A stretch of 64,000 nt of DNA from a phage. Where the stretch lies: the NCBI GenBank assembly GCA_024672315.1, contig GCA_024672315.1_4714.1. One strand, written 5' to 3'. The notes beneath the pieces were generated by a model. That model was given only the letters and a program-made list of their open reading frames with translations, searched no databases and was not told the origin of the DNA. Every line of letters starts with the position of its first letter. The first letter of the stretch is position 1. Made by a program: the position numbers and the translations under genes. Positions 433 through 54,219 of the stretch are shown here, piece after piece.

Positions 433-2019
433 TTATTTTTTTCCTCTTAAATTTACTACGTGTTCATTTAATCGAACAACTAATTGCACAAGCTGCTGAC
501 GGATATCTGCTGGACAAAGCATCAATCCTTTACGGTCAGCTGGGACTTTCTCAAGGATTTCCGGGCCTGCTGCTGAAACATCCCAGTCCCATTCACAAAA
601 CGCATCGGCCACCATGTTAATACCGACAACCGGTAAAGTTGTACGTTCATCTTCATACATGGCGTGTGGATACAATTTATTGACAGTAATGATCTCCTGT
701 GGTTTTAATTGGTGGATAATCTGATAAACATCGTCGCGTTTAACCTGGATACCTACGGTCAGCGCTGCCAGTTGAGGAAAACCCCAATGGTCTAATAAGC
801 AAGCTGCAATCGCTAACGCTTTTGCTTGATGCACGGCTTCAATCGGTGCCAGACTTCTCGCCGGAAGATGGCTATCAAGCAACCATTGTGCCAGTGCTCG
901 GCATCCACGGTTGATTGGTTTTAACTCAACGGTGTCATCATGTTTAGCGTACGTGTATCCGTCGTAACGTTTTGCGATACGCGCATACATGTCTTCAACT
1001 TTACCGTAAGGTGCTGTTTCGTCGACGTCGTGCAACACACGTTCCATCTGGGTGAGATACGCAATATCAAGAATGAGTACACGCGGTGAACGTTTATCTT
1101 TCACCATCAACGCATCAATCACGCCTTGACTGTCTTCATCTTGCGCGTTCCCTCGTGGGGTTTTCTCACGAATAGGTCCGCTGAAACGTCGTTCCGTACA
1201 AAGGTTATTCACATAGCTAAAGATCAGTGTTACCAGATGCGTACAACTCACCAACACCCCATCTTTAACGACAGGCTGTACGGCTTGGTCCAAGTCGCGT
1301 ACGGCTAGACGACGGACGATAGCTTGTGAACGCAACCAGCCTGGCACTTTCTCCGTCGACATGTAATCCACGGTCATCGACAGCGTGATCTTTTTATCAC
1401 CCGTCTGTGCGCGGATATAGTCTTCCAGTCGGTCGTAAGCAGCGATATCATGAATGCGTGTTTTATACATCAGTGACATAGCCACTTCTTCTTTACGGAC
1501 TGTCCCGTACGTTTTCCCTGCGTCAATCAGAAACTCTGCCCAAATCGGCACCATCAGACGGACGTAGATCGCTAACGCCGTTAACTCAACGTAATCATTT
1601 CGTAAATAGGTTTTCTCGGGTATATCATCCTCACCTAATGTTGTTTTCATGTCCGGCGGTAATTTTACCCAACCTGGGGTATTACACAATGCCAGAATCT
1701 CTTCATACACAACCGGTTTGTAAATTTCACCAACGGCGCGACTCAACTCCTCCATTTGTTGCTGTGGAGCAATGTAGTTATCCATCGCTTCACGTGCTTT
1801 AACGAACCCTTCGAAGATGTCGTCGATTCGACGTGGGTTCTTTTGTTCTATCCAGGCGAGATACTTGTTAATCTCCCGCATCTGATTGCTAGCCATATCC
1901 CCATCGATCTTGATGTAACCCTGACCTGAAAATTCCACGGTACGTCCATCACGGTGTTTGATGAGGTAGTGATCCAGCTTTTCTTTTCCTTGCGTCGTAA
2001 TGACGGGCACTATGTGCAT
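433..2019 (-). CDS. hypothetical protein
   Basis: ORF-track 433..2154; start moved to internal ATG at 2019 (MHIVPV...), which has AAGAGG 5-6 nt upstream. Early-promoter-like motif about 58 nt upstream. Confidence 0.6.
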   Translation of the reverse strand: MHIVPVITTQGKEKLDHYLIKHRDGRTVEFSGQGYIKIDGDMASNQMREINKYLAWIEQKNPRRIDDIFEGFVKAREAMDNYIAPQQQMEELSRAVGEIYKPVVYEEILALCNTPGWVKLPPDMKTTLGEDDIPEKTYLRNDYVELTALAIYVRLMVPIWAEFLIDAGKTYGTVRKEEVAMSLMYKTRIHDIAAYDRLEDYIRAQTGDKKITLSMTVDYMSTEKVPGWLRSQAIVRRLAVRDLDQAVQPVVKDGVLVSCTHLVTLIFSYVNNLCTERRFSGPIREKTPRGNAQDEDSQGVIDALMVKDKRSPRVLILDIAYLTQMERVLHDVDETAPYGKVEDMYARIAKRYDGYTYAKHDDTVELKPINRGCRALAQWLLDSHLPARSLAPIEAVHQAKALAIAACLLDHWGFPQLAALTVGIQVKRDDVYQIIHQLKPQEIITVNKLYPHAMYEDERTTLPVVGINMVADAFCEWDWDVSAAGPEILEKVPADRKGLMLCPADIRQQLVQLVVRLNEHVVNLRGKK

Positions 2020-2076
2020 AACAACCTCTTTTCGCGGTTCCCTGTTAAAACGTCTTCTGTGACGTCTACCACAAAG

Positions 2077-2084
2077 GTAATATA
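2077..2084 (-). promoter_or_regulatory. putative phiKZ-type early promoter core (TATATTAC on minus strand)
   Basis: Plus-strand GGTAATATAAGC = minus-strand GCTTATATTACC, about 58 nt upstream of the 2019 start; shares the extended motif with sites at 7356, 13212 and 42173. Confidence 0.5.
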
Positions 2085-2223
2085 AGCGTGAATAATTTTG
2101 GATTCCGGCTGAGTTATCGCTCAGCATGCAAGGCATCCCGCCGAAGCGAGACACCTTGCACTAACGGAAAATATTCGCGTTACCTTCTGAATCGAAGACT
2201 CAGAATGCGATGCTAAAGCATGA

Positions 2224-3012
2224 TTAGAACGCTAAGCCATCAAAGGCTACGGACGGATCATCGTCGTCATTTGCGCTTGGCGCATCCCAACGGGTATCAG
2301 GGGCCGCTGAAGCCGAACTTGATGCGTTAGAGTTACCGTTGTACTGGCCGTTACCAGCATTACGGTTACCGCCGCCGTTGTTGTTACGGTTATAGCTATT
2401 GTTGCCACCATTACTTACGCTACGGCTTTCACCGTCGAAGTTGGTTGCGAGGATGCTTGGCAACACCGCGCGATGAATACGTACAAATTCCAACGCACAA
2501 AGCGGAGAAACAACCCCGATCTGTAAAGGTTGCCCAGACTCATCAACCAGAGCGTGGAAGCGCGGTGGCTTGAATACGAATTGGATGTTCGGTTTTTGGT
2601 ACGCTGTTACAGCGATATATACCGAACCATCATCGTTCTTACCAACCCATGTTGTACTTTCGGTAATCTGTTTCTTCTTACCTGGGTTATTGCGATCGTC
2701 GATAACCTTTTCGTTCTTCATCGCAAAGCGTTGGCCTGGTTTACCCTTAGCAACCTGCTCGAGGATCGCAAGCAGGTTATAGAACGCGTATGAGCTCATG
2801 CGTGCCCAAATGCTTTCAGCGCGACCCTGCTGGTCTTTACGACCGGTGTAAACCGTGATACGCGGTTGATTCTTAGCAACGCTAATTTTCAATGAGGGGA
2901 TTGAATTACCGCCCTCAACCTTTTCGTCCGCCCACAGTTTCCAGTTGTTGTCGTCATACGCTGTAGGAATAATGTTTCCTTGTGGTTTACTGCCCGAATT
3001 CCAATTGCTCAT
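2224..3012 (-). CDS. hypothetical protein, possible ssDNA-binding-like protein
   Basis: 262 aa; long N/G-rich low-complexity linker followed by an acidic C-terminal tail (DDDDPSVAFDGLAF), an organisation reminiscent of SSB proteins; GAGG RBS. Functional call is weak. Confidence 0.35.
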   Translation of the reverse strand: MSNWNSGSKPQGNIIPTAYDDNNWKLWADEKVEGGNSIPSLKISVAKNQPRITVYTGRKDQQGRAESIWARMSSYAFYNLLAILEQVAKGKPGQRFAMKNEKVIDDRNNPGKKKQITESTTWVGKNDDGSVYIAVTAYQKPNIQFVFKPPRFHALVDESGQPLQIGVVSPLCALEFVRIHRAVLPSILATNFDGESRSVSNGGNNSYNRNNNGGGNRNAGNGQYNGNSNASSSASAAPDTRWDAPSANDDDDPSVAFDGLAF

Positions 3013-3085
3013 TTTCAGCCTCGTTACGTAGTGTGAATCAATTTCTGGTTCAGATGATAGTCAATATTAGTTAAAAATTACAGCC

Positions 3086-3883
3086 TCAGCGGAACATGTC
3101 CAACAGAAAACGTTTTGCGAAGGGGTCACGTAACTGGTTGACGCCAAAGCGTGTACGGTCTTCCGTTGTTAATGGATTCCACTGACTCTGTTTCGCAAGA
3201 TCTAACAGCATCCTTTTTATTTTCACCGGCCCGCTGTTGAACTGTACGGCTTGGTCACCGAACGTTCCCAACGTCATCTTTGTAAATGGAAGGTTCGCAA
3301 CCTCTGGACGATCCCCACCAGTAAGTTTGGTTGACCACTGATGTTTTCGTTTCAAGGTTCCGGTATGGCTTTCTACCAAAATAAGTTCACCAAAACCGGT
3401 TCTTGCCAACAAGTCAGAAACATAGTGCGTGGTGATATACGATGTCTTGGTTATCGCGGGTAATTTACAATCCATCGATTCGATATTAGGGAGTCGATCT
3501 ACAGACGCCATCAACCCACGATAAAGTGTAGCGAGTCCTTTTTGTTTTTCGGTGTGTGGCTCCTTATGTGTAGCGTGCGGATAAACACGCTTTATTGACG
3601 CATAGGTTGGCGCATATATCCGCAAGCGAATATGGGGAACGAGTTCATTCACCAGCTGCCTTAGCTGTAGTAACTCGTTTTGAAAATCCCCTGTTATCAT
3701 CGATAATGGTAATTTATGTTGTTCAACGTCTTCAAAGCTTTCAACGAAATTGCGTGCTAAAGTACGCAGGTTGAACAACCAATCCATCGGTGTTTCTGGC
3801 TGTTGCTGTACGGCTGATAATGTTGCAGACGTACCTACCGATAAAGGATAATCACCTAACGTGCGGGCGTACATATTGCTCAT
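3086..3883 (-). CDS. hypothetical protein
   Basis: ORF-track 3086..3919; start moved to ATG at 3883 (MSNMYART...) preceded by AAGGAG. Confidence 0.55.
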   Translation of the reverse strand: MSNMYARTLGDYPLSVGTSATLSAVQQQPETPMDWLFNLRTLARNFVESFEDVEQHKLPLSMITGDFQNELLQLRQLVNELVPHIRLRIYAPTYASIKRVYPHATHKEPHTEKQKGLATLYRGLMASVDRLPNIESMDCKLPAITKTSYITTHYVSDLLARTGFGELILVESHTGTLKRKHQWSTKLTGGDRPEVANLPFTKMTLGTFGDQAVQFNSGPVKIKRMLLDLAKQSQWNPLTTEDRTRFGVNQLRDPFAKRFLLDMFR

Positions 3884-3902
3884 ACCCCACAACTCCTTCT
3901 TA

Positions 3903-5045
3903 TCATGGCAACGTATCAAGCCAAGCAGAAACCTTTAAGGCATCAACGTTCGGGTATTTATTACGAATGCGTTCGACCAACAAACGCTTAACGTTGTCCT
4001 TTGTCAAGTCCCCACCTTTCTCGATAACGTTATTGACGAAACTGTTCTTTAATAGCGACTGGTTGTTCTTAGCGTCCGTTTTAATTGACCAAACGAAGCC
4101 TGGATACAAAGAAGGAATGGAACGAAACGTTTTCGCCGCATCGTCTTCCTTATCACAGCGTATTCGGATATGATCACCCTTCTTCAATGGAGCCAATTCC
4201 CGTTCCAACACACGAATGATTTCATCTCCAACAAGACCGTGCAGTTTTATCGTCTTGTAGACATCTGCTTTCTTGTTCTCAACAAACTCCCACTGGTCGT
4301 TAAACGTTTCCGTTAACATATAACGGAGGTATCCCTTCGGACCTTCTTCACCGTGCGCCAAGCGACCAAATGAACCGCCAACCATGATACGTCCTTTCTG
4401 GGATTGTAAGTGGATATGTCCGCTCACGACCCACCCTTGGGTCTTCTCCACCATTGCGTTATACGCATCGCTGCTATGAACACATGTTGCTTTTAACGCT
4501 TCTGGTGGAAGTTGATATTCAAACGCACCGTGCATCAGAATAAAGTCCGGCGATCCCTTCTCATCAATAAGTCGGTTCACGGCCGACAACGTCACATCCG
4601 GGTCGTGGCTGTAGTTATCTGGAAGATAAAGTACTTTTAAACCAAAGTCTTCATCAACCATGCAGAGGTCATCGTAATAACGAACTTTCGCTCCTATCTC
4701 CATGACCTCGTTCTGTTCAACGAACCACTGACTTTGCTTCTGGTCGTGTAAATTGGTACCCTCAAGAAAGATCAATGTAATATCGTGTTTTCTCGCATAC
4801 CGTAACAACCAGGTACCCCAGGCACGAACAGCAACCACGTCACTCGTCACAAATGTCGTAATACGATCGAAGACATCGCCGCTGAACGTAATCACATCAA
4901 GCAGCGCAGGATCTTCTTTTGTAATGTAATAACGTAGTTGGCTAATCAGGTTTACTGTCGGTGTTTGACGGTGGATAAAGTGAATATCCGACAAGTTGAT
5001 TCCACGTAATACCCCAGGCGTTTTATTTCGACTGAAGTCTCGCAT
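3903..5045 (-). CDS. SbcD/Mre11-like metallophosphoesterase nuclease
   Basis: Calcineurin-like phosphoesterase motifs in order: LSDIHF (D-x-H), GDVFDR (GD-x-x-D), GTNLHD (GNHD-like), MHGAFE, SGHIHL (GH-x-H). Start overlaps the upstream stop (ATGA). Confidence 0.8.
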   Translation of the reverse strand: MRDFSRNKTPGVLRGINLSDIHFIHRQTPTVNLISQLRYYITKEDPALLDVITFSGDVFDRITTFVTSDVVAVRAWGTWLLRYARKHDITLIFLEGTNLHDQKQSQWFVEQNEVMEIGAKVRYYDDLCMVDEDFGLKVLYLPDNYSHDPDVTLSAVNRLIDEKGSPDFILMHGAFEYQLPPEALKATCVHSSDAYNAMVEKTQGWVVSGHIHLQSQKGRIMVGGSFGRLAHGEEGPKGYLRYMLTETFNDQWEFVENKKADVYKTIKLHGLVGDEIIRVLERELAPLKKGDHIRIRCDKEDDAAKTFRSIPSLYPGFVWSIKTDAKNNQSLLKNSFVNNVIEKGGDLTKDNVKRLLVERIRNKYPNVDALKVSAWLDTLP

Positions 5046-5827
5046 CAGAATTCCTCTAAATTGCTGCTGCTAATAGTCCCCGTCGTAGACGGCATGTTTC
5101 TACTACCCACCGACGCTGTTGTTGAAGAGGTTCTGGCTAGATTCAATCCGTTTAATAAACCACGCTCTTTTACCGTACGACGTGAACCATCACGAACGTC
5201 GTAAAGGGGTACGTTATAATGGTCAAAAATCCGAAGCCATTGCACGTAATCAGCAACAACATGGTCTTTGCTTTCATTCGGGGCAAAGCGATCAAGCTGA
5301 TGGTCGACGTAAGCTTTAGCGCTTTCAGGATTGAAGTTATACTGTCGGCGTGCTTTGTCCACCATCGCGAGGAAACATGTATTGGGGTCACGATTGATAT
5401 ATGAACGCGTCCGGATAAAGATAGCCGGTACCGTAAACAGAACCTTGTTGTTATTCCCGTCAGCAACGATGTTAACCGCACGATGTGGTTGGCCTGCTAT
5501 CTTGCACCAATCGTGAACAATGGTGCTATTACTCAACATCTCCGCGTATTCAGGATCCTGCGAAAACATTCCTGCGAACGGGTACAAGAAATGTTTAACG
5601 AACAGCGATTCGGGCAGGATGTTGGGACGCGTCATCTCCTGTAAACCTTTTCGTAGAAGCTCGCTGTTGTCTACCAGCTCCTGCCACATATCCGGTCGTG
5701 TTTTCGGGATGGACGGGTCCTGAGCACGACGAATGCGTTCTTCTTCATTTACAACCACTACCCCAGCCGGATACCCCAATAAATCCGTTCCTTCGCTAAC
5801 GTTGCTGTTAGTTTGGCGCGCCTTCAT
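5045..5827 (-). CDS. hypothetical protein
   Basis: 260-aa ORF, translationally coupled to the downstream nuclease gene. Confidence 0.5.
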   Translation of the reverse strand: MKARQTNSNVSEGTDLLGYPAGVVVVNEEERIRRAQDPSIPKTRPDMWQELVDNSELLRKGLQEMTRPNILPESLFVKHFLYPFAGMFSQDPEYAEMLSNSTIVHDWCKIAGQPHRAVNIVADGNNNKVLFTVPAIFIRTRSYINRDPNTCFLAMVDKARRQYNFNPESAKAYVDHQLDRFAPNESKDHVVADYVQWLRIFDHYNVPLYDVRDGSRRTVKERGLLNGLNLARTSSTTASVGSRNMPSTTGTISSSNLEEF

Positions 5828-6215
5828 TTACTTCCTCCTGCCACTTGATAAAATTACCACGCTCGGATCGCAGAACACCACCCAGATCGTACGATATACC
5901 TTTCTCTGTGACAATCCCTCCAATCTGGAGATCGACACGTTCCGTCGTCGGATCGATATACTTGACACGGACTTTCAATTCCACGCGATCGTAATAACGC
6001 ATTAAATAATCATACAACATCCGGTATGTCGCATCTTCCAATTTGGGTGCGCTATACTGCGATGTTGCAATGAGGTACGGTAGTGAAACGATGGAACCTT
6101 GATAGCAATACGACTGGGAATAATTCGATATTGCGAAATTGGTCATTAACCCATCCAACTTTTTACCCGATGCGGTTAAAAAGCTCGACAGTCCCGGTAA
6201 CGGATTCGATGCCAT
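5808..6215 (-). CDS. hypothetical protein
   Basis: 135-aa ORF in a same-strand gene array. Confidence 0.45.
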   Translation of the reverse strand: MASNPLPGLSSFLTASGKKLDGLMTNFAISNYSQSYCYQGSIVSLPYLIATSQYSAPKLEDATYRMLYDYLMRYYDRVELKVRVKYIDPTTERVDLQIGGIVTEKGISYDLGGVLRSERGNFIKWQEEVNEGAPN

Positions 6216-6228
6216 GAGGAACTCCTCT

Positions 6229-6702
6229 TTAAGCGTAATTCATTCCAACCAATCTATCGTAGTTAGGCATATGCCCTAACTCCAGTTCGACAGGCATGGA
6301 TACATTGGTGCGTGGTGCGTAAAATGTTCGCGTATGCATATCGATATACCCACAGTCCAAATAAACAATATCGGACAACTCCGACGGATGTTTAGGCGCG
6401 GGAATCTTTAATCGATTATAACACTCAAGCTGCCACCAAGCATGAAAAAAGTTATTGTAGGCGTACGATTTACTGTTGGCAACTTTAAGTCCGTAGATCA
6501 CCCATAACGCCGCCATGAAGTTGGTTGCGTTAATTCGCATCGGTTGTTCATTATTGAGCATGTACGTGTAGGTAAACAACGGTGTGTTACCGTCACCAAA
6601 ACGTCCGACTAAGGTATTGTTCGTGTGTTCGACCTCAAAGGAAAAATGCTGGCTGCTATTGCCATCAAAATGGATCATTCCGTTCTCCTCAAGCTTTTTC
6701 AT
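6229..6702 (-). CDS. hypothetical protein
   Basis: ORF-track 6229..6768 begins at a GTG inside a GC-rich hairpin; internal ATG at 6702 (MKKLEENG...) is preferred. Start uncertain. Confidence 0.45.
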   Translation of the reverse strand: MKKLEENGMIHFDGNSSQHFSFEVEHTNNTLVGRFGDGNTPLFTYTYMLNNEQPMRINATNFMAALWVIYGLKVANSKSYAYNNFFHAWWQLECYNRLKIPAPKHPSELSDIVYLDCGYIDMHTRTFYAPRTNVSMPVELELGHMPNYDRLVGMNYA

Positions 6703-6797
6703 TTCATAGAGTGGTGGAAATTCGTAGAAAGTTACAAAAATAAAAAAGAATGGGTAGCCCCTCCCCACCCGAAGGTAGGGAGAGACCGCAAATATAT

Positions 6798-7262
6798 TTA
6801 AACCAAAGCTGCGATAACGTCGTTAACATTGCGGCCTCGCAACTCTGCCGCTAAACGAATAACTTCATCCAGGGAACGGTTTGTACGAATCTTGGCCACT
6901 TTCCAATTTTCAGGATACTGTTCGAAGTTAAGCAACCAAGTCATTACCTTTGCTTGTTCCATACCGTTGAGTTTAATTGTCGTGCGCGGATTGGCTTTGA
7001 ACCACTTCTTGCTCAGCTGCGCCATACGGCGAACAGGGTAAGCGTAAGCGCGAGTCCAGTCTTTGGACAGATTGTCGAGTAATTCACAGTAGCTGTTGTC
7101 GTAGTCTTTGTTGATACGACGTAATAACCAGTTGGCGGTCATCTGATAAAGTTTATCATCTTCACGTAACCGCATACCTGCTACTGCTAAATAAATGATA
7201 AGACCTGCGCCCAGGATGAGAGACAGGATGAACAGAATTTGGGTTTCTTGTGCTAAAGTCAT
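6798..7262 (-). CDS. hypothetical membrane protein
   Basis: N-terminal hydrophobic helix (ILFILSLILGAGLIIYLAVAG); start set at ATG 7262 with GAGGA upstream; early-promoter-like motif upstream. Confidence 0.55.
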   Translation of the reverse strand: MTLAQETQILFILSLILGAGLIIYLAVAGMRLREDDKLYQMTANWLLRRINKDYDNSYCELLDNLSKDWTRAYAYPVRRMAQLSKKWFKANPRTTIKLNGMEQAKVMTWLLNFEQYPENWKVAKIRTNRSLDEVIRLAAELRGRNVNDVIAALV

Positions 7263-8261: not shown

Positions 8262-8900
8262 TTAACCTAATTTACCACCGGCGATATTGGTGAAATCTTC
8301 GCCATCAGGAACTTGCAGTAGGATACGTGCCATGTCCCAGTTGGTTAATGTGATTGCTTTATCATCGATACTCAGTTCTGGTAGGTCGAGTTCATGATCA
8401 TCAAACTCGTAGGAAATACTCCACGTTTCATCTGTTTTAGGATCGGTCATCAATACACCGTCTGTTACACGCATGTAGTCCGGATGCAGTTCATTACTGA
8501 ACGTACTGAACGGATCGGTGTAACATTCAGCATACCCCTCGATCTGCTGACGCTGTGCCTTCGTACGTAATTCAGGGCACGCCATGATCAGTTGTCGAGA
8601 TATACCGTTTGCCGCACGGAAGTCTTCCACGGTGATACATGGCATAACCACATCGTCATGGAAGATGTTCTCCGATTGTCTCAACAGCGTCTTACGGAGT
8701 TCAGCATAGTTTATCTGATTAAATGCGTCGAACGTTGCTAACGATTCAGCGTAAAAATGCTTTACGTGTTCGCTTGCGCCGCCGAGGCTATTCATCAGCT
8801 TGTGGCCGTACTCCATAAAGCTTTTATCGAGACCGGAGGACATTTCTCCGAACCTCAGTGCACGATAACTGTCTCGTCCACCTGTAAATATTTGCGCCAT
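8262..8900 (-). CDS. hypothetical protein
   Basis: 212-aa ORF; AAGGAGG RBS upstream of the ATG at 8900. Confidence 0.6.
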   Translation of the reverse strand: MAQIFTGGRDSYRALRFGEMSSGLDKSFMEYGHKLMNSLGGASEHVKHFYAESLATFDAFNQINYAELRKTLLRQSENIFHDDVVMPCITVEDFRAANGISRQLIMACPELRTKAQRQQIEGYAECYTDPFSTFSNELHPDYMRVTDGVLMTDPKTDETWSISYEFDDHELDLPELSIDDKAITLTNWDMARILLQVPDGEDFTNIAGGKLG

Positions 8901-8915
8901 TACAGGCGTCCTCCT

Positions 8916-9153
8916 TTAGCAATGGTTGTTAGTTGCTTCTATTTCGTCAAGATACGGTTCTACGTCATCGCCCTCCACGAATTCGTTGAACCAACAGTCA
9001 ATGGTAGAAATAACCGGTGACTGGTGTTCACATTTCTTAGATACCTTAAAAGGTACGTTATTATCCATCATACCGAGTTCGGGTCGAAAACGCCCGAAAT
9101 GTTTCGCAGTCCAAATGTCTGGGACGATATGGTTGTTCATAGCGTCTCCGTCG
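8916..9153 (-). CDS. RNA polymerase beta'-like subunit (nvRNAP-type), 3' exon encoding the catalytic loop
   Basis: In-frame minus-strand translation from 9153 reads DGDAMNNHIVPDIWTAKHFGRFRPELGMMDNNVPF..., matching the bacterial beta' segment DFDGDQMAVHVP...LMMSTNNILSP. The ORF track shows only a 74-aa fragment (8916..9140) because an in-frame stop lies upstream in the intron. Confidence 0.65.
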
Positions 9154-9530
9154 CTGTTTATCGACTATATCTTCATCCTCATTGCGAGGAGTCTCCCGTT
9201 TGGGTCTGTGTTTAACAGAGCCTACTCTACTCGACGTCGCGTCTTTCGATAGTCTGTGAGCACACATCTTAACAAACATTCGTGGATTCCTAAACAGGTG
9301 AATGTTCTTGTTGAGATGCTTCGCTGCGGATTATTCCCGTCCTACCTCTTTTACCGTACCCAGTTCATTACGCTGGCCCTCATCTATGTCACCACGATGA
9401 GTTGGTGTGTAGTCCGATTACAGAAACTTCCCGTCAATTAGAGAGTTTTAACTACGTTCCTGTTACCAGAAACCAGATCCCGACGGTATCAATAAATCAA
9501 CGTAAGTTATTGATTTAATTGAAAAAACTG
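9154..9530 (-). ncRNA. group I self-splicing intron (second intron in the nvRNAP-type beta' gene)
   Basis: Minus-strand core elements in canonical 5'-to-3' order: P-like AATTGACGGGAAG (plus 9427-9439), Q AATCCGCAGCG (9322-9332), R GCTCACAGACTATCG (9247-9261), S AAGATATAGTCGA (9161-9173). Exon nucleotide before the intron is U; intron ends in G at 9154. Only about 9 nt follow S, so no P9 is evident and the exact 3' boundary is uncertain. Confidence 0.6.
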
Positions 9531-9549
9531 AAATCTGCATTATCTAAAT
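9531..9549 (-). CDS. 19-nt micro-exon of the beta'-like gene encoding (Y)LDNADF
   Basis: Minus-strand AT TTA GAT AAT GCA GAT TT; joined to one upstream exon nucleotide (T) and to the downstream exon (C GAC GGA GAC) it gives YLDNADFDGD, restoring the universal NADFDGD Mg-binding motif. Flanked by intron 3' G (9550) and followed by the next intron. Confidence 0.5.
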
Positions 9550-9932
9550 CTTCAGTATGGTTCGCTACGCCATACCCGCACATACGTGCAACTTACGTCT
9601 TTCACGTAAGAAGAGACTATATCTTTCACCCTCAGCATTATCTGGTCGGGGCTCCCATTTCGGCGGTCATCTGACCGGTGGTTTCCCACGCCGCTTGGCC
9701 CTAACGCCCGTAAGCGATAGTCGTTGAGCGCATCTCCGTTCTGGAGACTTCGCTGCGGATTCCCCAATCCTTGCCGCTTTTACCATACCCGAATGATTAG
9801 TTCAGCCCCACGCGCTGTTCCCAGGCGTGGTTGGTGGACAAGGCTCTAAGTAGGTTCCCGCATTAGAGAGTTCCTCGTAACAACATTTCTGCGTTACTGG
9901 GCCTAACGACCCTTTCAAGATCATCACGCTTA
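9550..9932 (-). ncRNA. group I self-splicing intron (first intron in the nvRNAP-type beta' gene)
   Basis: Minus-strand P TAATGCGGGAA (plus 9855-9865), Q AATCCGCAGCG (9751-9761), R GCTCAACGACTATC (9716-9729), S AAGATATAGTC (9615-9625), P9-like hairpin CTTACG-tgaaaga-CGTAAG (9592-9610). The 5' boundary at 9933 is a best guess (exon ends in U, frame gives Tyr when joined to the micro-exon). Confidence 0.65.
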
Positions 9933-11151
9933 ACCCGATGGTGTTATCCTGCGGATCGCGTTTAACCTTGGTGATTTCAAGACATTGGTTACTGCTTCGG
10001 TCAAGTGATGGGTTTCGAACAAAGCCACACACAATCCCATCGAACGGTGTATCAGCAATAAGCTCATCATGCAGCTCGCTCATCATCGGATGATAATTAC
10101 GGACATGTTCCGCAACGAACGCACGTGCTGCTCTTGGTGAATAACCACGATGGAATAACTTGGATTGGATATGTTCTTTATTGGTTAAAGTAAATGGTGC
10201 GTATGGGAAATGCAGATGATAATAACGATGGTTCGCTGTTATCGAACTGATTACGGTACGCGTGGTAAATGGATGTAATGTACCTAATATGTTTTTACGT
10301 GTGATACCTTTCTTCTTACCGATGAACTCATCGAAAATCGCCGCATGGTATTGCAGCAGCTTCAATTGCACTTTCGCCATCCAGTTTTCTTTCTTTCTGG
10401 CGCTCAAAGGTGTTGTTGGATGATAGATACTGTTCAACGTACCGATAGCATCGATCGCACCTTCCATTTTGCTATCCGCATAACGACCGGTTGGCGTATT
10501 CTCGATAACGAACATCATGGCCGCAGGAAAGCTGATATACTGACTGAAGAACTTATCACGATGAATACGGATGAATTCTCGTAGCGTGTCAACTTTCTCC
10601 GTGTTCTTCGGTCCACGTAACGTCGGTCCTTTATACAAGATCTCCATGATGCGATCGAAGTTCTGTATAAAACTATTTACGCCACGTCGTATCCCGAATA
10701 CATCGAATTGCTGCTCCAGATAGTTCTTGAGTTCGATGGGTCGTTTTACATTTGGACGGTAACTGGCATCAATGAGCCACGTCATCGTTTCAAAGCTTTT
10801 GATATTCAACTCGCTTGCCAGCACGAGATGGACCAACGGGTTAATGAACGCATCGATTCCTTCAGGAACGCGCGCCCACACCGTCGAACGAATCTCCTGT
10901 TCTGCTGGGTAGGTTACAACCGTTTTACAGTTTGGACACACCGTGCCGAGCAGCTCACCACGATTGTAGAAACCACAACCACATTGTGGCGTGATATCCA
11001 ACGTATCGCTGGAGTAAACACGGGTGATAAAACTGTTTAATTTCTTCTTCTCTTCGACGACTTTTGTATCGTAATCGTTCAACAAAATCGGCGTAAAAGG
11101 AAGTTCTGCGAGCTGTCTATCGAAACTCACGATATCGAGCATGATGGCCAT
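9933..11151 (-). CDS. RNA polymerase beta'-like subunit (nvRNAP-type, N-terminal part), 5' exon
   Basis: Zn-finger-like CGCG...CPNC near the N-terminus; GKKKGITRKNILGTLHPFTTRTVISS resembles beta' [39 protein letters not shown] resembles NRAPTLHRLGIQAFEP (switch 2). ORF-track runs on to 9802, but the last ~43 codons are judged intron read-through. AGGAGA RBS. Lies immediately downstream of the chimallin candidate, as gp54-gp55 do in phiKZ. Confidence 0.7.
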
Positions 11152-11193
11152 GGGGTATCTCCTACAAATGAAAAAGAACGTTAGGACGTATAA

Positions 11194-11217
11194 GGGAGGG
11201 AGGTTGCCCTCCCTCCC
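11194..11217 (-). terminator. GC-rich hairpin, putative terminator/attenuator after the chimallin gene
   Basis: GGGAGGGAGG-ttgc-CCTCCCTCCC perfect 10-bp stem between the chimallin stop (11244) and the beta' start (11151). Confidence 0.45.
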
Positions 11218-11243
11218 GTCAGATTACATCGAACGTTCTTCCA

Positions 11244-13139
11244 TTAGAACAGGTTGAATGCCCCACCCATGTTGTTACCGCCAACATTCGGACGATCGCT
11301 ACGTGCGTAGATGTTGCCGGAGATGTTACCCAGACCACGAGCACGTGCTGCCATGTTACCACGAACAGCGGTACCTGCCAGGTGCTGGATGTTCTCAGGA
11401 CGGATGGTGAAGCCAGCATCAGCCGCAGCTTCGATCAGCGCCTGCAGTGCTAACGGATCGAAGTCGTAACGCATTGCCCAGCCGGTTTGTTCCCAGCTAC
11501 CAGACAGAACACGATCAATGATTTCGTGACGAGCGACAACACGCTGAGACATCGTCATATCGGTACGGTCGAAGCTGTCTTCCCAAGCTTCTACGGTATC
11601 CGGGTTAGTGATGTTCATCATGTACAGATCGTCCATATCACGAATATCGTGACGGTGACCATCCTGGTGGTTGTAGTAACCCAGCGGGATACGGTTACCG
11701 GTAGCGTAGACCAGCGGTTGGCCGTATTGATATTTCTTGCTGAAGCAACCCAGGGTAGTATCATCGAAGGCACGGTAGAGTGCTTTGTAACCTTCGGAGA
11801 TTTCTTGAACTTTACCGTCAACGTTGCCCGTAAAGATCTTCTCAGCCGCCGGGATCATACGCAGCAGCCAGCTATACTCGCCTTCTTCCGGTACGTCGAT
11901 AGAAATCAGCAGAGACGGATACAGAACCTGTTGCAGGAACTTGTAAATCTGCTCGTTGGTTTGCGTAGACAGATCCAGCGGTGCAGTCACTTCAGGATCC
12001 AGCACCATCGCCAGAGCACCTGGGTTATGCGGACCAATACCACGAGCCGCGTTGCTGATTAAAGACTGTGCCCATGCCATGCCGCTGTTCAGCGTAGCGA
12101 TGGTACCAATCAGACCCAGCACGAAGCTGTTCGGTGTGAACGCATCCAGCTCCAGCGGGTAAACGCTGGTCATCACGTAACGCGGCTGGTACTGTACAGT
12201 CGGCGGTACCGGATAGCCGTTAACCAGAACAGGGCCTTGGTTGAAGGTCGGGTTCTGCGGGCTGTAGGTCAGGTCAATGTAACCGGTGGTGGCGACCAGA
12301 CGCTGTTGACTATCGTAATCGCTCATCGCTTGACGGATGCGGTTAGAGATAGTTACAGTGATGTCAGAACGCACAGGGTTACCAACAATATCGCTGTCCT
12401 GCATACCGCTGGTGTTGTACTGAACGCTGCTGATTGGCTGATCGCTTGCCATCATGCCCAGGTTGAACTGCGGCAGACCCAGTTTATCACCGAGACGGAT
12501 TTCGATCGCGGTTTGGATTGCGTTATCTGCAGCAGACAGCAGGGTGGTTGCCAGATGCGCAGATTCAGCGGTGATTTCATTGGTCACCACAGCCAGACCA
12601 GCGATACGAACAGTACCGTTAGACTTACCGCCAATAGCTGAATACATTGCCGCCATGACTTCGTTGATGAACGTACCGTTCAGGTTATCAACCCAGGTAC
12701 GCGGTACCAGAATGTTACCATGCGGACCTTGTTCTTCACGACGCGGCAGCGGAGCCAGACCAGCAACCAGCGGCAGGACGTAACCGAAGAAGTGGTTATG
12801 ATCACCAACTTTTGCACCGCTCATAACAACCAGGGTCGGATACGGTACGCTGTACTGGTTCGGGTCAACCGCAACAAAGATGAAGTCGTCTTTGAACTGG
12901 GTATCTTCCAGATATTTCTCCATCAGACGACGGAGATTCAGTACCTGCTCGGAGCCGGTATTACGGCTGATACGACGGCTCAGTGTACGGTTGATCGTAC
13001 GCATCGTATGAGTTACTTTAGGACGGTCGGCAAAATCTGCAGCGGTTTCCAGCGCCTCATCAGCACGTTGTGCGGTGCGGGTTTCAGCTGCACGAATTTC
13101 TACATTATCGTTACCGTTATTACGTACGTCTAAGCCCAT
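11244..13139 (-). CDS. chmA: candidate chimallin (phage nucleus shell protein, ChmA-like)
   Basis: 631-aa ORF with AAGAGGAA RBS and codon usage typical of a highly expressed gene; early-promoter motif about 73 nt upstream; sits directly upstream of an nvRNAP-type beta' gene (phiKZ gp54-gp55 arrangement) and about 12 genes from the PhuZ homolog. Assignment is by size and synteny, not by a recognised motif. Confidence 0.55.
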   Translation of the reverse strand: MGLDVRNNGNDNVEIRAAETRTAQRADEALETAADFADRPKVTHTMRTINRTLSRRISRNTGSEQVLNLRRLMEKYLEDTQFKDDFIFVAVDPNQYSVPYPTLVVMSGAKVGDHNHFFGYVLPLVAGLAPLPRREEQGPHGNILVPRTWVDNLNGTFINEVMAAMYSAIGGKSNGTVRIAGLAVVTNEITAESAHLATTLLSAADNAIQTAIEIRLGDKLGLPQFNLGMMASDQPISSVQYNTSGMQDSDIVGNPVRSDITVTISNRIRQAMSDYDSQQRLVATTGYIDLTYSPQNPTFNQGPVLVNGYPVPPTVQYQPRYVMTSVYPLELDAFTPNSFVLGLIGTIATLNSGMAWAQSLISNAARGIGPHNPGALAMVLDPEVTAPLDLSTQTNEQIYKFLQQVLYPSLLISIDVPEEGEYSWLLRMIPAAEKIFTGNVDGKVQEISEGYKALYRAFDDTTLGCFSKKYQYGQPLVYATGNRIPLGYYNHQDGHRHDIRDMDDLYMMNITNPDTVEAWEDSFDRTDMTMSQRVVARHEIIDRVLSGSWEQTGWAMRYDFDPLALQALIEAAADAGFTIRPENIQHLAGTAVRGNMAARARGLGNISGNIYARSDRPNVGGNNMGGAFNLF

Positions 13140-51988: not shown

Positions 51989-52507
51989 CCTTGTCTTCGC
52001 CTCAGGTCGCTACGCTGAGACCGCCTGCGTGGATACGTACATCACAGGCTGCTTGCACTTTCATGCAAGAGGAGACTATATCAAACCGTCAGCTTCACCT
52101 GCTACGGTAACCTACACTTCGAAGACGCTTGTCCTCTACAGGGTGGTAAATCCCTTAGTCGTTGAACCTGCGTTGTTTCACATTCTTGTTTGCAAGAATG
52201 CCGTATTGCTACGCAACAACCAGGCTGCTGATTGCCCATTATCACGCACCTTAGCACCGCTTACGCGGCTTTTCTTTCAGCCTAAGCCTCCGTGGGAGGT
52301 AGTGCATCTCAACTGTTGTTTCCGCCTTTCGGCACCTCATGGGTTGTTGAGCTTTAGGGGTTCCCAGCAATTCGTAGGTTTTTCAAGCACTCCCTTTCGG
52401 GAATACCGGACCAATTCAGTTAGTAAACAACATTATTACCATCCCTCATTCTTAAGGGTTAATTTTTTAAAATGATAAAATTAATGTGTTTTTGGGCTAA
52501 CTCGAAG
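51989..52507 (-). ncRNA. group I self-splicing intron in the vRNAP-type beta' gene
   Basis: Minus-strand P CGAATTGCTGGGAA (plus 52361-52374), Q AATCAGCAGC (52225-52234), R GGTTCAACGACTAA (52155-52168), S GATATAGTC (within 52072-52084), P9-like hairpin CTTGCA-tgaaag-TGCAAG (52052-52069). Exon nucleotide before the intron is U (52508); intron ends in G (51989). Splicing gives ...YLAGLGGD|FDGDTV.... Confidence 0.7.
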
Positions 52508-53974
52508 ATCACCGCCTAAACCGGCGAGGTATGGCGCAGGAACAATAGTCGTTTCTACGAACGAAGCATTAGGTAACCAGTCGGGGTATTCCCATGCGAT
52601 AAATCGTTCATCCGTTATTGGTTCCCAGTTACTATCCAGTTCGGTTTTCGGTTTTGCAGCGACGGTTGTACGCGCGTAACAGGTTAACGGGATAACGGAT
52701 TGCATACCCGATACCGGATAACGTGTTACCATCGCAGCCAGGTTATTCCAGTACTTATATCCGGCGATATAGATAAGCTCGGTGTAAGTAATGGGGTGAA
52801 CATCCGCACCAGGTTTATTCAACATCTCTGGGGGTAATTCACTCATACCACGGAATAACCGAAACGAATCGTTGTTCACATAGACGAGGCAAAGATAACG
52901 TCCATTAACCATGATAGGCTCGTTACGCACACCAGGATCGCTTAAGGTGTTCAATAAACGTTCTATTCCGTCCCATGTTGTAAAGTCATCGATGGTATCT
53001 GGGTCTAACGTGACACGTTCACGTTCCATCGTTTCGATATCGATAAGTTCAACTTCTGTAACATCACGGACAAATATTTCCTGCAAAATCCCCGTACGTA
53101 GCGCATGTTGCGTTACAGGGAGAGCAGCTTTACTCATCTGGTATAACCCTAACTGAACCGCGGTACAGGAAGGCTGGTTAGGCGACCCTAATACCTCCGT
53201 TGTGGGGTTAATTGCCGAAATAACGTTACGGGTTGAGTTCCAAACGCGACGTGAGCCGAACTTACCTTGGAAGATCCCTTTCTTACCCTGGAACATATCC
53301 AACAGTAAAGCGTAGATATCGTTAAATGTTCTCTGTAAGCTCCAACGTTGACCGTCGTAAACGGGATCAGAATAATCTTTTAATCCATCAGGGACGGTGT
53401 TAGAAATTGCAAGGAAACGACGATACAACTCCGTGATTTCTTGCTCGCTTTCATACCCACCTTCTTTTACTTCTATTTCACGTAAGCCTGCAGGCAATAC
53501 CAGTAAGTGACGGGTCATCGCTTTGAACATGTTCTCTTCGACAACTTTAATTCGTAGCTCTCGTTGAGCTGAACCCGTTGAAACGAACTTGATATCAGCG
53601 ACGTGTTGTGCAAAGAACCCGTATCCTGTTTGTCCTGTTAATGCATCAGACGCAACGAAGTCGCGTTGTTCAGGATCCCAACGAGCATACGCCTTTCCCG
53701 ACATGATATCACCATAGAGGTGTTTTAGTCGAATGAGGCGGTCGTAAATGACGGGATGCAGGATTTCAACTTTGCATTCAATCACCGCAAATCGACGGTC
53801 TCGATCTTCACTACCTGCGCTACCAAAGATGGTGTAAGAATAGAAACCATCATCGTGGAAATTACCGGTGCTTGGGTCACGAATGCTCATGCTCGTGATC
53901 TTGGGGAGAAAACGTAACTGCTGTTTATCGAGGTGTAAAATGCTAATGTTAAACGGCTCTCTGACTTTAGCCAT
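52508..53974 (-). CDS. RNA polymerase beta'-like subunit (vRNAP-type, N-terminal part), 5' exon
   Basis: DGFYSYTIFG...RRFAVIECKVEILHPVIY resembles beta' DGLFCARIFG...RRERMGHIELASPTAHIWF but lacks the Zn-finger cysteines; GKKGIFQGKFGSRRVWNSTRNVIS resembles [23 protein letters not shown]. Start set at ATG 53974 with AGAGGAG (ORF-track 54016). ORF-track end 52481 includes 27 nt of intron read-through. Confidence 0.7.
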
Positions 53975-54219
53975 GGAGACACTCCTCTTTACCACCACCG
54001 GCTGCGGCGGTATCATCTGAACACACGAGAGACGTAATGGGTGATGGCGTCACCCATCGCTTCCTTGCCTGATGCCAGGAAGTTATTAGGTTACGTACCG
54101 GCTTGATAAAATCAAGCAGGCGATGTGTGAAGTTACGCTTCAACATTATCAATGCCGAAGGTAAGCTTCGTGCATCACGTTCCAACGTAACATGGGAACG
54201 TATCGAACTGGAGGTATAC

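Follow-up and report, generated by a model that had tools for sequence, protein, structure and literature searches.

The DNA analyzed here (the window) is a stretch of 64,000 nucleotides (nt) from a phage, GenBank assembly GCA_024672315.1, contig GCA_024672315.1_4714.1. On its minus strand, between positions 11151 and 8916, lies a gene that we identify with good confidence as encoding a phiKZ gp55-type β′ subunit of the non-virion RNA polymerase (nvRNAP), cut by two group I introns. Exon 1 (9909..11151) begins at the start of an open reading frame (ORF) and comprises codons 1 to 414 and the first base (T9909) of Tyr415, ending ...ATG ATC TTG AAA GGG T. It is followed by intron 1, designated type X (9544..9908; 365 nt, terminal G9544), a micro-exon of 13 nt, AUAAUGCAGAUUU (9531..9543), and intron 2, designated type A (9154..9530; 377 nt, terminal G9154). 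Exon 3 (8916..9153), C GAC GGA GAC GCT ATG AAC ... TAA, supplies the third base of a Phe codon and then encodes DGDAMNNHIVP... to the stop; the micro-exon, ATAATGCAGATTT, supplies bases 2 and 3 of the Tyr codon, Asn-Ala-Asp, and the first two bases of the Phe codon. A megablast search with 8800..11300 identified Escherichia phage Goslar as the closest relative, at 97.9% nucleotide identity, with no other close match.

The exon boundaries were set by comparison with Goslar and related genomes. A blastn alignment with the Goslar sequence (L001) gave three blocks: window 11300..9911 with 1501..2890, 9543..9158 with 2893..3278, and 9140..8800 with 4714..5054. Goslar lacks window positions 9908..9544 and reads colinearly ...ATG ATC CTC AAA GGT TAT AAT GCC GAC TT, then cag.... 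It is therefore a natural intron-1-minus allele, which places the 5′ splice site after T9909 (GGG T/CGTTAG) and the 3′ splice site after G9544 (TTTAG/ATAATG), and these sites fix the micro-exon at 13 nt. Intron 1 is also absent from six sister genomes, the exons being precisely continuous, and GGT/GGC TAT AAT is uninterrupted in Goslar, L009 to L011, and L014. Intron 2, which is 96% identical to the Goslar Intron_gpI, is absent from five sister genomes (L007, L013, and L015; L004 and L012), where GAT TTC GAC is contiguous. Each junction in the window is thus matched by at least one natural intron-absent allele with contiguous exons. The predicted spliced junctions are GGGT^ATAATGCAGATTT^CGACGG or, in longer form, GAAAGGGT^ATAATGCAGATTT^CGACGGAGACGCTATGAAC; the corresponding junction k-mers predicted for Goslar are GCCGACTT^CGACGGTGACGCT^ATGAACAAC.

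A different map had been drawn in the initial annotation, with exon 1 extending to 9933, intron 1 at 9932..9550, and a 19-nt micro-exon at 9549..9531, giving a product ...TIGYLDNADFDGD... where the comparative map yields ...GLSVMILKGYNADFDGD.... The letters quoted for it, both the 19 nt and the downstream C-GAC-GGA-GAC-GCT-ATG, do occur in the sequence, and intron 2 (9530..9154) and the start of exon 3 (C9153) had been placed correctly. That map also keeps the frame and satisfies the rule of a U before the 5′ splice site and a terminal intron G; there are two copies of GGGT, at 9936..9933 and 9912..9909, of which it uses the earlier, and the Rfam alignment of intron 1 nominally starts at 9929. 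However, it loses eight conserved residues (LSVMILKG), adds two (LD), splits the conserved Tyr from NADFDGD, and takes six intron bases into the exon by ending intron 1 at G9550 rather than G9544. The colinear reading in Goslar and six other genomes without intron 1 is ...GLSVMILKG Y NADF, the 13-nt version aligns gap-free with phiKZ gp55 and the intron-less homologues, and the P10 pairing UAAUG/CGUUA suits G9544/A9543 and not G9550/A9549. We reject this map, whose junction would be GGGT(9933)^ATTTAGATAATG, as refuted by the comparative data, and give it almost no credence. What survives of the earlier proposal is the tandem group I introns, the micro-exon carrying the NADF of NADFDGD, and the gp55-type gene, all in keeping with the covariance-model (CM) matches, intron-minus alleles, gap-free alignment, and P1 covariation; the length of 19 nt and the ends of intron 1 do not.

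Joining 11151..9909, 9543..9531, and 9153..8916 in silico yields a coding sequence of 1494 nt (497 codons; ...GLSVMILKGYNADFDGDAMNNHIVP...) and a 497-amino-acid (aa) protein reading ...SVMILKGYNADFDGDAMNNHIVP; the predicted tryptic peptide spanning all three exons is GYNADFDGDAMNNHIVPDIWTAK. A phmmer search of Protein Data Bank (PDB) chains matched the spliced protein to phiKZ gp55 (7OGP_A, 508 aa; E=1.1e-74, residues 21-476). This alignment, which had been suggested as a check of the initial annotation, has no gap at either junction, "lkgyNADFDGDamN" facing "lkapNADFDGDqlN" of phiKZ gp55. PHROG 2987 was matched end to end (positions 1-474 of 478, E=4e-133), and Pfam RNA_pol_Rpb1_2 (PF00623) scored above its cut-off. 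Among uninterrupted homologues the closest are P0002 (65% identity) and P0003 (62% identity), which read KGYNADFDGDAMN / ILKGYNADFDGDAMN and TAYNADFDGDEMN / LTAYNADFDGDEMN, respectively. As in phiKZ, the homology is colinear and includes the DPBB motif NADFDGD, and the gene for chimallin, the phage nuclear shell protein, is adjacent. Skipping of the micro-exon is predicted to cause a frameshift.

Both introns match the group I family. A permissive local Rfam scan of 8800..10200 aligned each to the full Intron_gpI model (RF00028, positions 1-253) on the minus strand, intron 2 at 9521..9154 (47.8 bits, E=1e-10) and intron 1 at 9929..9593 (30.8 bits, E=1.2e-5); the CM search that had been proposed for this region thus scores both, each below the gathering score of 50 bits. 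Since their scores lie under 50, neither is listed in a gathering-threshold scan of the whole window, where the sole match is a third intron at 52436..52052. The two sets of core elements described earlier, in canonical order on the minus strand, were borne out: AATCCGCAGCG (Q) occurs exactly twice in the 64 kb, at 9761..9751 and 9332..9322, and so does AAGATATAGTC (S/P7′), at 9625..9615 and 9173..9163, so that Q precedes S in each set. CM alignments and manually drawn structures place in both introns helices P3 to P8, the P4/P6 stack, the P3/P7 pseudoknot, and the Q/R/S order. Both also contain an insert of 50 to 60 nt between P7 and P3′ that forms conserved hairpins; extra P7.1/P7.2 helices at this position are a trait of subgroup IA, the phage type exemplified by T4 td. 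With a mutual identity of only about 60%, the introns are distinct ribozymes. They do not form a twintron: the intervening 13 nt are coding and conserved, and each intron occurs alone in some genomes.

The splice sites of both introns show the expected guide pairings, a U paired with a guide G in P1, a P10 with the 3′ exon, and a 3′-terminal G. In intron 1, exon GGGU pairs with the guide GCCC (9902..9899), with U.G at the cleavage site, and micro-exon UAAUG pairs in P10 with CGUUA (9908..9904), which in L005 and L008 is CAUUA, all Watson-Crick. For intron 2, micro-exon CAGAUUU pairs with GGAUCUG (9480..9474), again with U.G at the site, and exon 3 CGACG with CGUCG (9485..9481). The micro-exon is exactly partitioned between the two ribozymes: base 1 is free, bases 2-6 (UAAUG) belong to the P10 of intron 1, and bases 7-13 (CAGAUUU) to the P1 of intron 2. 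An alternative P1 for intron 2, through AAAUC near the splice site, was rejected, as it would give U-A instead of U.G and shows no covariation; the true guide lies 50 nt into the intron, past a 13-bp P1 extension hairpin.

Covariation among natural variants is consistent with these structures. The intron 2 P1 haplotypes CAGAUUU/GGAUCUG and CCGACUU/GAGUCGG are linked in 9/9 genomes, two pairs being changed on both sides, following synonymous changes in the exon. The manual structure of intron 2 (84 bp, consisting of P1, its 13-bp extension, and P2-P8) is 99.6% paired in nine natural variants and includes four double-compensatory pairs, two of them in P1; its covariation score was reached by 0/500 shuffles, and slid controls were 36-42% paired. 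That of intron 1 (83 bp) is 99.5% paired in seven natural variants, with two double-compensatory pairs and eight one-sided changes that preserve pairing. Slid controls over both introns were 34-44% paired.

The population of alleles was examined in 14 genomes: the window, Goslar, and 12 Goslar-like genomes of 183-245 kb, which were collected by scanning viral contigs with the spliced protein and by looking up the 74-aa ORF of the window (described below), and in which the region from ATGATC to ATGAAC was parsed. Although about 97% identical, these genomes display eight intron architectures. Intron X occurs alone in L007, L013, and L015, and intron A alone in L011; A contains a 320-aa HNH ORF in L009, L010, and L014. 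The window and L006 carry X and A, and L008 carries X and the HNH-bearing A. In Goslar, A with a 336-aa HNH ORF is accompanied by a further intron, type B; L005 has X, A, and B around two successive 13-nt micro-exons (ATAATGCAGATTT and CGACGGTGACGCT), and L004 and L012 have two B-like introns around an 18-nt exon. Four insertion sites are used, GGN T^AT AAY GCN^GAY TT^C GAC GGN GAY GCN^ATG, and presence or absence at the same site is polymorphic among close relatives, as for a mobile intron. A fully intron-less Goslar-type allele was not found in a collection of 5.8 billion proteins.

In silico splicing restores the 497-aa ORF in 14/14 genomes, with an identical GLSVMILKGYNADFDGDAMNNHIVPDI, and only 2/497 residues of the spliced protein vary. 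All nine third positions of the 27 nt for YNADFDGDA are polymorphic and every change is synonymous; this variation, together with the conserved ORF, argues that the micro-exon is translated in the predicted frame. Nucleotide diversity (π) is 0.146 in these 27 nt, the most diverse stretch of the gene, versus 0.023 in the rest, which indicates a distinctive history for the hot spot.

Several features of the type B introns were recorded in the same genomes. The lineage is found at two sites, as the first intron of L004/L012 and the last of Goslar and L005, 73-84% identical and each preceded by ACGCT. The P1 guide is constant (GGC), and the P10 guides, CAAA versus UCAU, fit the differing 3′ exons; judged from these sequences, type B appears to have been re-targeted to a nearby site by a change in the P10 guide alone, as reverse splicing predicts. 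Three B subtypes have three self-complementary P7 pairs, GAAUAC/GUAUUC, GAUCAU/AUGAUC, and GAGUA/UACUC. The second intron of L004 and L012 (IMGVR_UViG_3300011560_000001, ENA ERZ28647777) has C, not U, before its 5′ splice site (GAT GCC/AGAGCCATGGCC), and its guide CAUGGC would form C-G in place of the near-universal U.G wobble; this allele type is the commonest in public assemblies (434-aa gene call, 84 contigs). A terminal hairpin whose loop reads (N)GUAGCGA(A) is common to introns X and B and to the virion RNA polymerase (RNAP) intron described below; one example is GGGUAUGG-CGUAGCGAA-CCAUACU, followed by GAAGA...G (window 9544..9579). The cores of these introns are otherwise just 50-63% identical, and the hairpin may be a shared peripheral module.

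No endonuclease ORF was found in the ORF list for 9154..9908, and neither intron of the window therefore encodes a homing endonuclease. As had been noticed at the outset, intron 2 has almost no sequence after its S element, 9 nt (GATAAACAG) following the S/P7 strand; this short tail reflects an endonuclease-less form without P9, the entire P9 cassette being absent (GAUAA[A]CAG) from intron 2 of the window, L005, L006, and L011. In Goslar, GAUAA is followed by UUACGUGCACCGAC...(336-aa HNH/NUMOD1 ORF)...GUCGGUGCACGUAA-G, a 14-bp P9 stem whose loop contains the ORF. Intron 2 of L008 to L010 and L014 has another P9 stem (AGUUUAAUUUG.../...CAAAUUAAACU) with the 320-aa HNH ORF. The two HNH_3/NUMOD1 endonucleases are 28% identical, and the ribozyme backbones around them about 97%; on this comparison, the endonuclease cassette was exchanged or acquired twice. 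The two HNH genes share their position (L001 3279..4345; L008 about 3440..4500), each in its own P9 stem.

From the anatomy and boundaries of the locus, the family matches, guide pairings, and covariation, and the conservation of the spliced frame, we infer that the gene is spliced. Each intron would excise itself in the usual two transesterification steps, initiated by guanosine. Exon GGGU would be held on GCCC of intron 1 (P1), with the micro-exon aligned through UAAUG/CGUUA (P10); the micro-exon would present CAGAUUU to GGAUCUG of intron 2 (P1), and exon 3 would be aligned through CGACG/CGUCG (P10). Because the guides use non-overlapping halves of the micro-exon, both ribozymes could fold on one precursor, and either order of splicing would be possible. 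Correct double splicing would produce the 497-aa protein with NADFDGD intact.

Several observations weigh against this reading of two active introns and were considered with the alternatives. Besides the Rfam scores, which stay under the gathering threshold, the proposed P2 of intron 1 (12-16/28-32) has one pair broken in 3/7 variants and is possibly misdrawn. The variants are about 97% identical and offer few covariation events, and the structures were drawn from these same sequences; the structural evidence is for these reasons supportive, not decisive. Minimum free energy z-scores against shuffles are weak (-1.9 and -1.2), although they are uninformative for ribozymes that are pseudoknotted. 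In phiKZ, transcriptomics by Oxford Nanopore (ONT) sequencing left the splicing of predicted introns undetected (PMC10914365). Autonomous activity may also be weak or helper-dependent, since intron 2 lacks a P9 domain and the P1 of intron 1 has only 4 bp. At its extreme, such doubt would make the introns decayed relics in an unspliced gene, with the 449-aa and 74-aa ORFs that flank the micro-exon as separate products or a pseudogene and another catalytic subunit in use by the polymerase. The pieces are indeed separate coding sequences (CDSs) in public annotation, jumbo-phage RNAP subunits are naturally split (PMC7598289), and the subthreshold matches and missing P9 would fit decay. Yet no product bearing NADFDGD exists unless the gene is spliced, and the sole other β′ gene of the window belongs to the virion enzyme and is itself intron-split. 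The micro-exon and the start of exon 3 vary only synonymously in the 14 genomes, where so few residues of the whole protein vary, and the helices stay paired through compensatory changes, the P1 guide following synonymous changes in the exon. Decay is hence very improbable in our assessment.

A less drastic alternative is that the gene is spliced with outside help, a protein or RNA chaperone being required by the P9-less intron 2 or by both introns together, or that the 13-nt exon is partly skipped, the frameshifted product tuning the level of the polymerase. Tandem introns of Twort and Coxiella skip exons of 23 and 34 nt, and engineered Tetrahymena tandems skip one of 24 nt (PMC10136302). Efficient splicing of T4 introns needs translation, as cited in a passage of PMC10914365, and chimallivirus transcription is kept apart from ribosomes (PMC12908238); the absence of P9 from intron 2 points the same way. 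On the other hand, the two introns are dissimilar in sequence and have distinct guides, unlike Twort I2/I3, the P10 guide of intron 1 mismatches exon 3, and a frameshift from skipping has no evident use. Alleles with X only and with A only exist, so that each intron must work without the other. We consider help or partial skipping unlikely, though a good deal less so than decay, and continue with self-splicing of both introns as the preferred reading.

The nearest parallel among characterized phages is phiKZ gp55/gp56/gp56.1, a gene of the same family, with chimallin adjacent and the same motif cut by a group I intron (PHIKZ055, 420 aa; the HNH gene PHIKZ056; PHIKZ056.1; junction CCT AAT/...G/GCT GAT TTT GAC GGC GAT; group I core 75.6 bits). 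The PDB chain of phiKZ gp55 is the joined 508-aa protein, native gp55 is the full joined product of 56 kDa (PMC4666361), and later papers count gp55 among the intron-containing genes of phiKZ. However, phiKZ has one intron, at N/A, with the endonuclease ORF on its 5′ side, whereas the window has two endonuclease-less introns, at G-T/AT and TT/C, with the phiKZ site unused and a 13-nt exon between. In Goslar (gp247/Intron_gpI/HNH gp186/gp185) the exons are 98% identical and the intron 2 backbone occupies the same site. Goslar differs in lacking intron 1, in the P9 hairpin and 336-aa HNH/NUMOD1 ORF of intron 2, and in a further intron of 355 nt, 13 nt downstream, after GCT; a single intron is annotated there and the CDS pieces are unjoined. 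Neither the Goslar genome paper nor the Goslar structure preprint mentions introns.

Very short exons between tandem group I introns have precedents in orf142 of Staphylococcus phage Twort, where two of three group I introns, both of type IA2, enclose an exon of 23 nt, and in Coxiella burnetii 23S rRNA (34-nt exon) (PMC10136302). At 13 nt, the exon of the window is shorter still (that of L018 has 12 nt); it forms part of a catalytic motif, and the two guide pairings use it up. The introns on either side of it are unlike each other, and if it were skipped, the outcome would be lethal for the product instead of in frame. The group I intron of PhiPA3 gp210 likewise brings an HNH nicking endonuclease into a chimallivirus RNAP gene, where it sits at conserved catalytic residues (Birkholz et al. 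2024, PMC11620839), and it has been shown to play a role in competition between phages (PMC11620839). It differs in being a single intron, with its endonuclease present, in the virion RNAP β subunit, after two conserved Asp residues; in the introns of the window, the endonuclease was lost or was never there. Group I introns with HNH genes at catalytic residues of essential phage genes are thus already known, including in chimallivirus RNAP (PhiPA3 gp210; phiKZ gp55/71-73/180). Not found in the searchable literature were an exon of 12-13 nt common to two group I ribozymes inside NADFDGD, two such micro-exons in succession, or the polymorphism of eight architectures.

As sister phages carry intron 2 with an I-HmuI-like HNH gene in the P9 loop, the locus is part of a mobile-intron hot spot, of which the introns of the window would be endonuclease-less passengers. 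The mode of mobility is, again, an inference from the alleles: the HNH-bearing form of intron 2 probably drives it, and the introns of the window have possibly spread by co-conversion beside an endonuclease-bearing copy. We speculate that introns 13 nt from an HNH-bearing intron are co-converted with it or protect the site. The introns are probably retained because only precise deletion would restore the essential YNADFDGD motif.

Insertion into this motif extends beyond the nvRNAP gene of Goslar-like phages. In its virion-RNAP β′ gene, on the minus strand, the window carries the third group I intron (51989..52507, 519 nt; 63.6 bits, which exceeds the Rfam gathering score), between exons at 52508..54016 and from 51988 downstream to the TAA just before 51805. 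The site is GGT GAT / intron / TTC GAC GGC GAT, giving ...LGGDFDGDTVSVN, and the spliced 562-aa protein matches PHROG 2986 end to end (E=1e-178); Goslar has an Intron_gpI annotated at this place. The same motif is thus broken in both β′ paralogues of the window phage, as has been reported for gp55 and gp180 of phiKZ. About 13 of 73 homologues at 30-39% identity have gene calls that end inside the motif, after NA, NAD, NADFD, or NADFDG. L016 has a group I intron (87.8 bits) directly after GAC GGT, followed by an HNH gene, and in L018 a 12-nt micro-exon, GATTTCGACGGT, is flanked by two introns whose scores, 54.8 and 68.3 bits, exceed the Rfam threshold. Rfam at E<0.1 detected no intron in L017, L019, or L020; Q/R-like elements can be seen by eye in L017. 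The gene is uninterrupted, in one piece covering at least 80% of the query, in 259/290 phage records, that is, in most cultured chimalliviruses.

At least seven distinct insertion sites were counted: the four of Goslar-like phages, N/A in phiKZ, G/D in the distant relatives L016 and L018, and D/F in the virion-RNAP gene of the window (GGDFDGD). Truncated gene calls suggest an eighth, after NADFD, and at least four intron lineages are represented. Tentatively, the ~30 nt for (G)YNADFDGDA(M) in chimallivirus β′ genes could be a contested landing pad on which neighbouring introns may interact functionally. If so, endonuclease-less introns would hitch-hike by co-conversion or shield the allele by destroying the recognition site of the endonuclease, and micro-exons of 12-13 nt, of which L005 has two in succession, would mark the minimum spacing for the P10 of one ribozyme and the P1 of the next. 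Splicing would take place inside the ribosome-free phage nucleus; as transcription and translation are separated in these phages, the locus bears on where and how phage introns splice without ribosomes. With eight architectures in near-identical genomes, and Goslar already a model for phage-nucleus biology, it offers a compact natural system for asking what the shortest exon is that two independent group I ribozymes can have in common, by what means tandem introns escape exon skipping, and how endonuclease-bearing and endonuclease-less introns compete or cooperate at one catalytic motif.

The surrounding genes agree with the assignment of the gene to the gp55 type. Upstream on the minus strand lies the gene for chimallin (631 aa, 11244..13139), recognized by the Goslar annotation "nuclear shell protein", by PF25677 on the homologous genes of L006-L019, and by the phiKZ gene order; chimallin next to β′ is the synteny of phiKZ gp54-gp55. 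The RefSeq order in Goslar is nuclear shell protein, "RNA polymerase beta subunit" (423 aa), ncRNA "Intron_gpI", HNH endonuclease, and a 79-aa hypothetical protein, and the window has the same order on its minus strand, with ORFs at 13139..11244 (631 aa), 11151..9802 (449 aa), and 9140..8916 (74 aa). The 449-aa ORF described in the initial annotation was confirmed from the ORF list; its non-homologous tail is 35 codons long, against the estimate of about 43. Gene callers report only the internal 74-aa ORF of exon 3, which is present on hundreds of Goslar-like contigs. In public records of these phages the gene appears as a truncated "RNA polymerase beta subunit" plus a "hypothetical protein" of 74-79 aa, not as one protein of 497 aa, and the present map corrects the annotation of an essential subunit.

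Three further observations concern related contigs. Goslar-like contigs of 234-247 kb are frequent in isolate assemblies labelled Salmonella enterica, E. coli, Shigella, and Enterobacter hormaechei (P0001 protein cluster), which suggests frequent carriage of Goslar-like lytic jumbo phages in cultures. P0080 (Shigella sonnei), of the same protein cluster, has a different sequence after KG at site 1, with the tail STLICNFV. In L018, an IS605 OrfB/TnpB-like (Cas12f-like) gene lies at 6019..7245, about 1 kb downstream of the twin-intron β′ gene.

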